This document shows positions 42,232 to 45,184 of a stretch of 64,000 bases of DNA, piece by piece. The notes beneath the pieces are model-generated. The model was not told the DNA's origin, did not search any database, and saw only the letters and a list, made by a program, of their open reading frames with translations. Source of the DNA: Thermodesulfobacteriota bacterium. GTDB taxonomy: Bacteria; Desulfobacterota_D; UBA1144; Nemesobacterales; Mycalebacteriaceae. Each line of letters begins with the position of its first letter. Position 1 is the stretch's first letter. The position numbers and the translations under genes were made by a program. Location: assembly GCA_965205855.1 (NCBI GenBank), contig OZ242184.1, forward strand, positions 928,001 to 992,000, given 5' to 3'.

Positions 42232-42768
42232 TTATTTCTTCCCCGCCGCTTTCCGGTTGGTTTTTCTCGCGGTTGCGGAAGAGGTTTTTGGGGTTACGGA
42301 TTTCTCGGATGATTTCTTTGCGGCGGGGAGGTTCTTTTTCGCAGATGCAGACTTCACCGGAGTCTTGGTCTTATTTGAAGAGGTTGCTTTTTGAGACAGT
42401 TTTTTCGGAGCTGTCTTTTTCGGAGACGGTTTCTTGGAAGGCGATTTTTTCGGCGCCGTAACGGCGAGTTTGGAATTGGTATCGCCAGACGGCTTTTGAG
42501 TGAAGATATCCACCACCTTTTCCCGCAACTCCGAATGAGCAACGGTAAGTTCTATCTCAATCTCCTGAGTCTTTTCGCCAACCACTACAAAAACCGGCAT
42601 TATGCCTATAAAAGTTGTTCTTTTTTTGTCGCTGTCAACCTTCTCAAAATCAAGCGCCGTCATCAGTTTCTTCGGAAGTCCCTGCAATATGGTTTCGCCA
42701 AGATGAATGCTCTGTTGAGGAAGGAGCCCGTCCTGACTTATACTGAGTTTTATAACAGTAGGTTTCAT
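42232..42768 (-). CDS. Hypothetical protein with Lys/Ser/Pro-rich histone-H1-like C-terminal tail
   Basis: [19 protein letters not shown]...[17 protein letters not shown]. Confidence 0.7.
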
Positions 42769-42917: not shown

Positions 42918-43868
42918 ATGAATAACAAACTGTTTCAAAAAATTCAGAAAGAGCTTGACAAGCACATAATCGGTCACAAGGAAGTAAAAACCGCTTTGTT
43001 GCTTGGCATTCTATCAAGAGAGCACATCTATATTGAGGGCCCCCCCGGAACCGCGAAGACTATGCTTTCCGAGATTATAGCGTCCTGCGCTCAACTGAAG
43101 TTTTTCTTTTACCAGCTTCACAGAGACACAAGGCTTTCCGAGCTTGTGGGAGACATGGTCATTTCAAAGGAAACAAATGATGACGAGGAGATAATCCGGC
43201 AGAAGATAGTCAAAGGGGGAATCCTGACCGCGGAAATATGCCTCCTTGACGACATATCAAGGGCCCCCGGAGAATCCCTGAATGTGCTTCTCCGAATCCT
43301 GAATGAGAGGAAATTCTTTGAAGACCCGCTGCCGCTTATGACGGCGATAGCAACAAGCAATCCAACCGCCGATGAATACTACAACGAACCGCTTGACCCG
43401 GCCAATCTGGACAGATTTGTGTTGCAGATAAAATCTGTCGGCACATCTTATAAACGCGACTGGAAAACCGCAGACAACATTATTTCCCTCTACTCGGACA
43501 AGGATGAGAAGACGGAAGTCGCAAGGATACTAGACAGGCGTATGCTTGACGAACTGCACGACAGGGTCAAAGCGACGCCGATATCCAAAAAGGTACAACA
43601 GGGGCTCAGAGAATTCATCCGCATTCTTGTTGAGGAATACGGGCTGAATGAGACTAACTCGCTTATTTCGGACAGAACCTTCCTTGTAAAAGCGCTTAAA
43701 ATAATAAAGGCGCATGCGGTTTTAAACGGAAGAAAATCATGCGTGATGCAAGACCTTGAAGTATTGAAATACATTACCGTTTTCCGCATTCCACCTGAAG
43801 TCTACGAGCAGATTGACGCCATTTTGGAACAGATTAACAGTAAAAAAAAAAGCCAGAAGAACGGCTGA
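42918..43868 (+). CDS. MoxR/RavA-like AAA+ ATPase (short product of a possibly frameshifted gene)
   Basis: EHIYIEGPPGTAKT (Walker A), LLDDISRA (Walker B), LNER, ATSN..LDPANLDRF; ends SKKKSQKNG* after an A10 run. Confidence 0.9.
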   Translation: MNNKLFQKIQKELDKHIIGHKEVKTALLLGILSREHIYIEGPPGTAKTMLSEIIASCAQLKFFFYQLHRDTRLSELVGDMVISKETNDDEEIIRQKIVKGGILTAEICLLDDISRAPGESLNVLLRILNERKFFEDPLPLMTAIATSNPTADEYYNEPLDPANLDRFVLQIKSVGTSYKRDWKTADNIISLYSDKDEKTEVARILDRRMLDELHDRVKATPISKKVQQGLREFIRILVEEYGLNETNSLISDRTFLVKALKIIKAHAVLNGRKSCVMQDLEVLKYITVFRIPPEVYEQIDAILEQINSKKKSQKNG

Positions 43869-45184
43869 ACCAACCTCAGGAACAAGAACCGGAACCACAG
43901 TCCGAATTTGACAAAGATATCCAAGACAAGGAAAAAGAGGAAATTCCCGACGAAGACTCCGAGAAGGAGGGGGAAGAACAACATGAAGACGCCCGCGAGA
44001 CATTTTTTCAGGTTCTGAAAGACCTTAGGGAAGAGAAGATGCAGCCGCCCGAAGGAATGGACATTCCATCCGACCCCAAAGGGCAACCGGACCAAGATGC
44101 GGGAGAGGACAAGCAGAAAGAACTGTCAGAAAAAACCACTTCAAGCAAATCCCTCCGTCCCGGAGATACGGACGAGAACGCGGCGGCGGCTTACAGAAAC
44201 TACGAAACCGCCAAAAATATCAAACTGATAATGAGAGTGCTTGAGGGGAGTTTTCAGCGAAACACCGCCACAAAAAGGAGCCACCCTGGCGGAATGCCGA
44301 GGAAGTGGAAAAGGATGAACGCCTTTGATCTTGATGACTCCGACCCTCTGGAGCTTTTCCTCTGGTCAGACCACACATCGCCCTCTCTGCCACGCATTCA
44401 ATTCAGGGAAAAAGAGACAACCGGTGGCGAGGTTGCAATCTTGCGCGATGTCAGCACTTCAATGATGGGAATTTACAGCGAATGGGCTTCATCGGTTGTC
44501 CGGGGCGTGGTGGAACTCGCCCGAACAAAAAACATGAGAGTGGGCTACCTTGAATTCAACCACAAAGCCGACCCTTACGGACGGAAGAAAAACCGGCCAA
44601 GTTTTTTCACAAGAGAATACAGATGGCTTATGAACCTTGCCGAGTCAACCGACTGTTCCGGCAATACGAACTATGAGGAAGCCCTCAAAAATGTGGTTAT
44701 GGAGTTTAAAGGGCGCGGGCTGAGAAACAAACACATCCTTTTTATAACGGACGGCATTCCGACTTCGGGAGACATCTCATTCGGAGACGACGAAATGCCA
44801 ACCCGTCATTCCCTTCCTCGCAAAAATGAAAAACATTTGCTGGAATACCTAAACGCCGGCGCCCCTCACCGCGCTCAACAGGACTGGACGCAACCCCGCC
44901 CCCTGCGGGAGACGGTGCACAAAACGCAACGACTCGGCATTTTCATACACTCCATTTTTATCGGCTCAAAAAACTATCCGAAAATTCTTCAGAAAATCTC
45001 CGAGGAAACAGATGGCACACAGTTTGTCGCCTTCAAAAACGATGAGAGCATCATGCAGGTTGAGCGCAGAGACAAGTTCATCAACGACTACAAACTGAGA
45101 CATCAGGAAATGGACGACAGTTTTGATCCCATCAAAGCCGCTTTTTCCCGACGCAGGATTCACACCGTAACGGGAAAACTTTAG
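43844..45184 (+). CDS. Acidic/Pro-rich linker plus VWA (MIDAS) domain; open from 43844 in the -1 frame of the AAA gene (first ATG 44039)
   Basis: Stop-free from 43844: KKKPEERLNQPQEQEPEPQSEFDKD..; MIDAS RDVSTSM, GNTNY, LFITDGIP. Confidence 0.8.
   Translation, partial: KKKPEERLNQPQEQEPEPQSEFDKDIQDKEKEEIPDEDSEKEGEEQHEDARETFFQVLKDLREEKMQPPEGMDIPSDPKGQPDQDAGEDKQKELSEKTTSSKSLRPGDTDENAAAAYRNYETAKNIKLIMRVLEGSFQRNTATKRSHPGGMPRKWKRMNAFDLDDSDPLELFLWSDHTSPSLPRIQFREKETTGGEVAILRDVSTSMMGIYSEWASSVVRGVVELARTKNMRVGYLEFNHKADPYGRKKNRPSFFTREYRWLMNLAESTDCSGNTNYEEALKNVVMEFKGRGLRNKHILFITDGIPTSGDISFGDDEMPTRHSLPRKNEKHLLEYLNAGAPHRAQQDWTQPRPLRETVHKTQRLGIFIHSIFIGSKNYPKILQKISEETDGTQFVAFKNDESIMQVERRDKFINDYKLRHQEMDDSFDPIKAAFSRRRIHTVTGKL

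Follow-up and report, generated by a model that had tools for sequence, protein, structure and literature searches.

We examined a 64,000-nucleotide (nt) stretch of contig OZ242184.1 (assembly GCA_965205855.1, positions 928,001 to 992,000), referred to here as the window, whose source genome belongs to Candidatus Dadabacteria; the records of its relatives are also labeled Thermodesulfobacteriota or Deltaproteobacteria. Between positions 42918 and 45184 of the window lies what we read as a single gene with two products, in which an open reading frame (ORF) for a MoxR/RavA-like AAA+ ATPase ends shortly after a run of ten A residues (A10) and a linker with a von Willebrand factor A (VWA) domain, including a metal ion-dependent adhesion site (MIDAS), continues in the -1 frame. 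The features of the locus, in window coordinates, are as follows.

42918 to 43868, + strand: ORF1, MoxR/RavA-like AAA+ ATPase of 316 amino acids (aa), with its TGA stop at 43866 to 43868
43842 to 43851, + strand: A10, the candidate recoding site, a slippery homopolymer whose first A is the first base of an ATPase codon
43844 to 45184, + strand: -1 frame with linker and VWA domain, 446 codons plus stop, entered by recoding only
43853 to 44038, + strand: acidic, Pro-rich linker upstream of the first in-frame start codon
44039 to 44041, + strand: ATG for Met66 in the -1 frame, conserved as a residue and not as a dedicated start
44435 to 45100, + strand: VWA domain with a complete MIDAS motif (Pfam VWA_2/VWA/VWA_CoxE); the end coordinate is approximate

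At the junction, the ATPase frame reads AGT AAA AAA AAA AGC CAG AAG AAC GGC TGA, decoding the A10 run as Lys-Lys-Lys and reaching its stop 17 nt past the run. The -1 frame translates without a stop into 446 residues (start, KKKPEERLNQPQ), and because the codon just before the run in this frame is TAA (43841 to 43843), which closes the frame upstream, it is reachable by recoding only. The predicted products are the ATPase of 316 aa and an ATPase-linker-VWA protein of about 755 aa. A preliminary description of this DNA, made from the letters of the window, had given the positions of the A10 run, the ATPase codons, the TAA, and the -1 frame; all of these were reproduced, and its count of 65 codons ahead of ATG 44039 and its product sizes follow from them. 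Its central proposal, that one gene yields two products through recoding at the A-run in a MoxR ATPase that is not a chelatase, is supported by the comparative evidence, from which we estimate a probability of roughly 0.85 for programmed recoding of either kind at the run.

The ATPase of this gene is of the MoxR type and is not a chelatase subunit. Its Pfam matches, all of which pass the cutoffs, were to bpMoxR (4.5e-21), AAA_5 (6.7e-20), AAA_3 (7.1e-13), and AAA_lid_8 (6.8e-8), and it had no AAA_lid_2 match, unlike the chlD-type gene of the same genome described below. The Walker A motif is GPPGTAKT. In a profile search of the PDB with the ATPase, the closest solved structures were RavA (1.4e-31) and 2r44 (6.4e-28), and Foldseek, queried with a model of the fused orthologue L018, returned 2r44 (1.3e-20; template modeling score to target, 0.73) and RavA (2.8e-16). 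This model is alignment based and depicts a natural fused orthologue, not the window's own protein; its overall predicted local distance difference test (pLDDT) score was 82.4, and a single-sequence AlphaFold model (pLDDT, 33) was discarded in its favor. Two narrower assignments were tried and rejected: RavA proper (equivalog NF010054) scored 59.5 bits against a cutoff of 681, with positions 14 to 286 of the 498 in the profile covered, and a ChlI-type AAA+ identity scored 20.2 bits against a cutoff of 20.3 with Pfam Mg_chelatase, over residues 16 to 55 only. The Walker B position (residues 108 to 111, CLLD, plus D112; window 43239 to 43250) is Leu-Leu-Asp-Asp; the canonical Walker B ends in Asp-Glu. 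Neither D111 nor D112 varies among 12 orthologues, LDD stands in the consensus of 46 full-length homologues, and such an Asp-Asp ending could mean slow or regulated ATP hydrolysis.

The 65 codons of the -1 frame ahead of ATG 44039 are acidic and Pro rich. An alignment of the VWA-frame products revealed two conserved motifs upstream of the Met, SEFDKD (43901 to 43918) and a helix, ARETFFQVLKDLRE (43991 to 44032), the consensus of which is A-R-x-T-F-x-x-A-L-x-x-L-x-x-N. In the model of the fused orthologue, this helix occupies residues 351 to 373 and is flanked by two disordered stretches. Although its Pfam matches are weak (VWA_2, 2.1e-5), the VWA domain has the full MIDAS motif previously claimed for it, with D-x-S-x-S at 44447 to 44461 and a conserved Thr and Asp further downstream; the MIDAS residues (D516, S518, S520, T586, and D614) are nearly invariant across the 46 full-length homologues, and the domain has a confident alpha/beta fold in the fused-orthologue model. 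A MoxR-type ATPase is accompanied here by a VWA/MIDAS protein, encoded in the adjoining frame or fused to it.

The length of the run was checked in further DNA data. Two deep Logan contigs from two sequencing runs of one study (326x and 76x) read A10 with zero differences or gaps; they are possibly the source data of this genome, and as assembled contigs they mask minor run-length variants. A Logan contig from a second study has the identical run but begins only 11 nt before it and was not counted as bridging. This short contig, from sequencing run X5 of the unrelated study, spans window 43831 to 44004; sequencing run X4 has no coverage from about 43792 to 43996, so that neither of these two bridges the A-run. 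These breaks in the X4 and X5 short-read contigs could reflect run-length variation in the samples or mere low depth. There are 37 A/T runs of at least 9 in the 1,401,274-bp genome, only two of which lie at the end of a long ORF where another frame opens, so that the layout is more than chance. The other in-window runs of at least 9 are in frame (3/3), as the preliminary description had held.

The comparison covered 120 Dadabacteria species genomes, which fall into two orders and nine families. Of these, 117 have an orthologue of the ATPase (52 to 87% identity over the match), and two of the 117 loci, G078 and G116, reach a contig edge before the junction, leaving 115 junctions for the counts. 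At every one of the 115, an uninterrupted run of 9 to 12 A residues stands at the homologous place (A9, n = 15; A10, n = 68; A11, n = 31; A12, n = 1); in G099, masked bases follow the run, and its length is at least 11. The VWA domain lies at -1 in 94 junctions, is fused to the ATPase in 17 (13 of 14 in family f7, 2 of 2 in f5, and two isolated cases in f2), and lies at +1 in 3 (G003, G111, and G094), each of which is one A short of its congeners. The poly-A run described for the window is kept in all of these orthologues and the -1 offset in most of them. The remaining junction is irregular: G060 (locus L257; A9, 52% identity) has three in-frame TGA codons in the ATPase. It has the look of a decaying copy or of an assembly with many errors, and it was set aside.

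Such a locus might also arise if the homopolymer of a plain fused gene had been miscalled or if the gene had recently decayed to a pseudogene, given that A10 versus A11 is a typical homopolymer error and that fused relatives exist. We find this hardly credible, because the -1 layout recurs in 94 independent species genomes, A10 is read in both deep contigs, and both halves of the gene are under purifying selection. An error shared among the genomes is excluded because they stem from many assemblers and platforms. The view taken in the preliminary description, that the frame change is no homopolymer error, holds on these grounds.

The pattern of codon usage indicates that the homopolymer is under selection as nucleotides. 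Lys is conserved at 12 other columns of the gene, where 517 of 928 codons are AAA and 411 (44%) are AAG, and in the fused genes the same columns are evenly divided (AAA, 99 of 198; AAG, 99). An AAA-AAA-AAA triplet would by chance be expected in about 12 to 17% of genes, whereas the run is unbroken in 115 of 115, and the three other KKK stretches in these genes all use mixed codons. The run is also unbroken in all 17 fusions, although the long protein there needs no shift. That the run is unbroken everywhere, despite 44% AAG at conserved Lys, argues that the nucleotide run itself is selected.

A hypermutable A-run could in principle act at the DNA level, toggling the VWA part on and off within a population with no RNA or protein recoding. 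Poly-A tracts of 9 to 12 do slip during replication, and between related species a difference of one A goes with a change of state. In genus g16, A12 is fused and A11 split, and in g12, A11 is fused and A10 split; loci that switch between split and fused by exactly one A are L058 versus L069, and L059 and L060 versus L032. A quick tree requires at least 3 to 4 such switches within the phylum. We nonetheless consider phase variation very unlikely. The state is stable across whole families: among the first 79 loci, f8 was at -1 in 14 of 14 and f9 in 17 of 18, while f7 was fused apart from a single locus, and 22 of 23 further f8 loci were at -1. A VWA domain that is "off" in 94 of 115 species should decay, but it is instead under strong purifying selection; its ratio of nonsynonymous to synonymous differences per site (pN/pS) is 0.08, and that of the linker is 0.21. 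Finally, a single run length was found in the two deep assemblies, though contigs hide minor variants.

Whether the linker is read in the VWA frame bears directly on recoding, and here the start codons and Met counts were drawn from the first 79 loci (62 split and 17 fused). In 60 of the 62 split loci, the VWA frame offers its first ATG, GTG, or TTG only 11 to 131 codons past the run; the exceptions, L075 and L040, have a chance start codon upstream of it. For 30 of the 62, the point at which the VWA frame becomes open is within the run. Between the ATPase-frame stop and the Met, within-family Nei-Gojobori counts gave the linker's pN/pS of 0.21 in the VWA frame versus 1.37 and 2.06 in the other frames, with the VWA domain as a control; it counts against our reading that these values rest on a protein-guided alignment and on saturated synonymous sites (pS, about 0.74). 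The first of these two concerns, but not saturation, is addressed by frame-blind nucleotide alignments of split loci only, in five families, in which variable third positions ranged from 42/48 to 48/50 and variable second positions from 9/48 to 20/50 (in f8, 46/50 third positions versus 11/50 second positions). The linker thus appears, from its pattern of substitution, to be translated in the VWA frame of split genomes, and because it evolves as coding sequence where start codons cannot reach, recoding at the run is required.

The same counts bear on the possibility that the locus holds two ordinary genes, with the VWA protein initiating at the internal ATG 44039 and the open frame upstream left untranslated. 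A Met occupies that column in 40 of the 62 split genes, and the window has a stretch rich in purines ahead of ATG 44039. However, the same Met is found in 11 of the 17 natural fusions, and Lys replaces it in 14 split loci, which to judge from the rows inspected are 14 of the 18 loci of family f9; the first start codon of the 17 f9 loci at -1 lies 37 to 128 codons beyond the run. Shine-Dalgarno (SD)-like motifs before Met66 are no commoner in split genes (12/40) than in fused ones (4/11). Given also the roughly 60 codons upstream that evolve as coding in the VWA frame of split genomes and the frames that open exactly at the run, an internal start is highly improbable.

We propose that standard decoding would yield the 316-aa ATPase and that, in a fraction of expression events, the frame would shift by one base at A10 to give the ATPase-linker-VWA protein. 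To judge from the sequences, the main route is probably transcriptional slippage, in which RNA polymerase slipping on the A10/T10 template would add one A to some transcripts. As slippage sites, PMC3711429 lists the A9 of Thermus dnaX together with runs of more than 7 A, and it states that a shift at a poly-A site may happen in transcription or in translation. Several signs point to slippage. The run is at least 9 in all 115 junctions, whereas 7 suffices for a ribosomal site, and the fused and +1 states retain it. Its codon phase is not the same in all families (0, 1, or 2), close relatives with one A more or less switch state, and, as detailed below, neither a consistent downstream structure nor a conserved Shine-Dalgarno-like element accompanies it. 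In addition, 16 of the 17 fused genes have a +1-frame stop 25 to 28 nt after the run, where split genes stop, so that a transcript losing one A would yield the same short ATPase. With this stop and the retained run, every genotype can yield the same product pair, in different proportions.

Programmed -1 ribosomal frameshifting on A_AAA_AAA (A_AAA_AAG in f2, f6, and f9) would make the same two products from a uniform mRNA. The junction sequences contain one or the other heptamer, correctly phased, in all split loci, an exact -1 shift is what 94 of the 115 junctions need, and published chlD sites are described in the available text of PMC9227772 as AT-rich, slippery, and read by the ribosome. 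Such a signal needs only 7 nt, however, and would leave the run-keeping +1 and fused loci unexplained. Moreover, no conserved downstream structure or SD-like stimulator was found, whereas chlD signals have downstream structures (PMC9227772, available text). Over the 70 nt downstream, the structure z score was -0.15 in the window and averaged -0.73 in the 62 split loci, 12 of which fell below -2 (pseudoknots were not searched); an upstream SD-like element was present in 0 of 6 (f1), 0 of 18 (f9), and 2 of 14 (f8) loci and was not conserved. We therefore regard the ribosomal route as unlikely to be the main one, though -1 slippage on A_AAA_AAA/G could contribute.

Several other points speak against our reading as a whole. 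The heptamer is present in every run, and ribosomal -1 frameshifting fits the 94 loci at -1 just as well. Homopolymer errors in individual assemblies could account for the three +1 loci and for some of the isolated fused ones; the assembly of G094 is 59% complete, and G060 carries its three in-frame TGA codons. Furthermore, the fusion is the default product in 17 genomes, and a fixed ratio of ATPase to fusion is not conserved. With respect to the -1 frameshift of the preliminary description, the recoding stands, while its nature is qualified: the data favor, but do not prove, transcriptional slippage over a ribosomal -1 shift.

Because the short and long products share the AAA+ module, they could co-assemble in one MoxR ring. 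Such a mixed ring, by analogy with ChlI/ChlD and DnaX tau/gamma, would carry free and VWA-tethered ATPase and thus a limited number of tethered MIDAS adaptors, and recoding may in this way set the stoichiometry of ATPase to adaptor, as the preliminary description proposed. What the comparisons show directly is that the phylum has conserved the A-run, the relation between the frames, and the coding constraint on the linker; from these we infer the recoding route, the existence and ratio of the two proteins, and their co-assembly.

Elsewhere in the genome and outside the window, a second A10 run (genome position 1,265,056) also divides two AAA+/VWA frames.

G000:C1:1264156-1265918 (locus L080, 2157 to 3919): chlD-type recoded gene, with A10 at the domain boundary and the VWA domain in the -1 frame

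This gene consists of a 300-codon ChlI-type AAA+ ORF (Pfam AAA_lid_2, 6.3e-16) and a -1 frame with a Pro-rich, acidic linker and a VWA domain (VWA_2, 3.7e-15). It is confined to the window's genus, where it occurs in 6 of 6 genomes (four split at -1 with A9 to A10 and two fused with A8 or A10), and it co-occurs exactly with the CobN/ChlH large subunit (PF02514), which is found in 6 of the 120 genomes, in genus g1 only. It matches the published case of the fs-chlD cobalt chelatase, in which one gene gives rise to both the small subunit and the medium one of Mg or Co chelatase (Antonov et al. 2013, PMC3711429; Kuznetsov et al. 2022, PMC9227772). BLASTP detected no similarity between the MoxR-type and chlD-type ATPases of the genome (E = 0.6). 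Because it is present in 117 of 120 genomes, compared with 6 of 120 for CobN, the MoxR-type gene forms a system of its own, sharing its device with the chlD-type gene.

In architecture, and in architecture only, the MoxR-type gene resembles fs-chlD, with an AAA+ module followed by a Pro-rich acidic linker and, at the C terminus, a VWA/MIDAS domain. In both, the boundary between the AAA module and the linker coincides exactly with an A-rich slippery site, plain fused versions exist in other taxa, and the short product is the ATPase and the long one the ATPase plus adaptor, as predicted here from sequence. In contrast, the AAA+ module belongs to a different clade, with RavA and 2r44 as its nearest solved structures, the gene does not travel with CobN/ChlH, and no downstream RNA structure was found. 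For scale, chlD-type genes frameshift at 10 to 63% in reporters (PMC3711429, available text).

The same source reports that the tau and gamma forms of Thermus thermophilus dnaX arise by transcriptional slippage on A9 and that there are two-ORF dnaX genes with A10 (PMC3711429, available text). As in dnaX, a homopolymer of 9 to 10 A lies inside an AAA+ gene, one-ORF and two-ORF layouts both occur, and the long and short forms share an ATPase module and are meant for one complex, here by prediction. Unlike the gene studied here, dnaX belongs to an unrelated AAA+ family with a clamp-loader function, and its slippage was shown experimentally, whereas ours is read from sequence. A third comparison is with the MoxR-VWA chaperone pairs RavA-ViaA, CbbQ-CbbO, and NorQ-NorD (PMC10743472, available text). 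These likewise combine a MoxR-clade ATPase with a VWA/MIDAS partner, and RavA is the best solved match, but their partners are separate genes, whereas here the partner would be tethered to the ATPase after recoding. RavA chains also differ in having 497 to 500 residues with an extra C-terminal part, being matched only to about residue 284, and the Asp-Asp at the Walker B position sets our ATPase apart from those pairs.

The wider family includes many fusions. An exhaustive search with a natural 702-aa fusion returned 155 clusters at E values of at most 1e-30, many of which were full-length fusions of 560 to 1000 aa at 30 to 52% identity. Full-length fused homologues from protists (P0008, P0009, and P0030; 35 to 42% identity) came from Hondaea fermentalgiana, in which the protein (727 aa) is named "ATPase ravA," and from marine transcriptome collections, and hence the MoxR-linker-VWA family is not confined to bacteria. 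The statement in the preliminary description that MoxR ATPases work with separately encoded VWA partners does not hold for this subfamily, which outside Dadabacteria consists of plain AAA-linker-VWA fusions. Its concern that homologues might lack the slippery run is answered by the 115 orthologues, all of which have it, and applies to distant fused homologues at 55% identity or less that have no run.

A search with an outgroup alignment also yielded 80 metagenome loci, 5 of them partial, and the other 75 were grouped by identity to the window ATPase. A run of at least 9 A stood at the junction in 25 of 25 loci at 63% or more, in 32 of 35 loci at 53 to 57%, which were mostly plain fusions with A10, and in 0 of 15 loci below 53%, which were fused. 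Judged from their junction sequences, the 18 loci without a run look GC rich. In the sister clade at 53 to 57% (L168 to L194 and others, mostly metagenome contigs), single loci with one extra A are split. The quick, weakly supported tree placed the Dadabacteria together (Shimodaira-Hasegawa approximate likelihood ratio test, 100) and, with weak support (82), inserted a run-less clade between them and the sister clade that bears the run. The likely history is that a plain fusion gained the run and that most lineages of the phylum then settled at the -1 split.

The surroundings of the gene are not conserved and point to no client: the most widespread neighbor cluster was found in no more than 22 of the 69 loci, and the most frequent neighbors, a zinc-ribbon protein, a Na:alanine symporter, and an outer membrane protein beta-barrel, are unrelated. 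In the window, the product of the divergent upstream gene (42232 to 42768, - strand) is 178 aa long, with a tail, rich in Lys, Ala, Pro, and Ser, that resembles histone H1-like nucleoid proteins, and it had no Pfam match at E values of at most 1e-5. A promoter and terminator scan returned 3 promoter-like sites versus 2.2 expected.

Our literature search brought up no report of a recoded MoxR-type gene or of recoding in Dadabacteria; the supplementary list of 146 candidate frameshift clusters in PMC3711429 lay outside this search, and the words "MoxR," "ATPase," and "Willebrand" are absent from the available main text of that paper. The design is known for chlD chelatases, and what appears to be new here is its presence in a MoxR/RavA-like clade, in nearly every species of an uncultured phylum. 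For annotation, the finding suggests a rule that an "AAA family ATPase" ORF of this kind and the "VWA" ORF paired with it in Dadabacteria be treated as one recoded gene and not as two genes or a pseudogene. For research on recoding, the run offers a clean site at which to tell RNA polymerase slippage from ribosomal slippage, and the natural genotypes (split at -1, fused, and split at +1) form a ready-made series on product ratio. In MoxR research, where clients and stoichiometry are mostly obscure, the gene provides a case of an adaptor physically tethered to its motor.

A broader and more tentative idea, which we hold to be somewhat doubtful, is that the run serves across the phylum as a homopolymer "rheostat," in which slippage on A9 to A12 would lead to mixed hexamers and set their number of MIDAS adaptors, the gain or loss of one A would retune the ratio, and the whole would represent a general, convergent principle among AAA+ proteins. 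If this were true, the split -1, fused, and split +1 genotypes would be ratio states that all persist in nature. Making an AAA+ core with and without an adaptor tail by recoding, as in chlD and dnaX, would then be no mere curiosity of chelatases.

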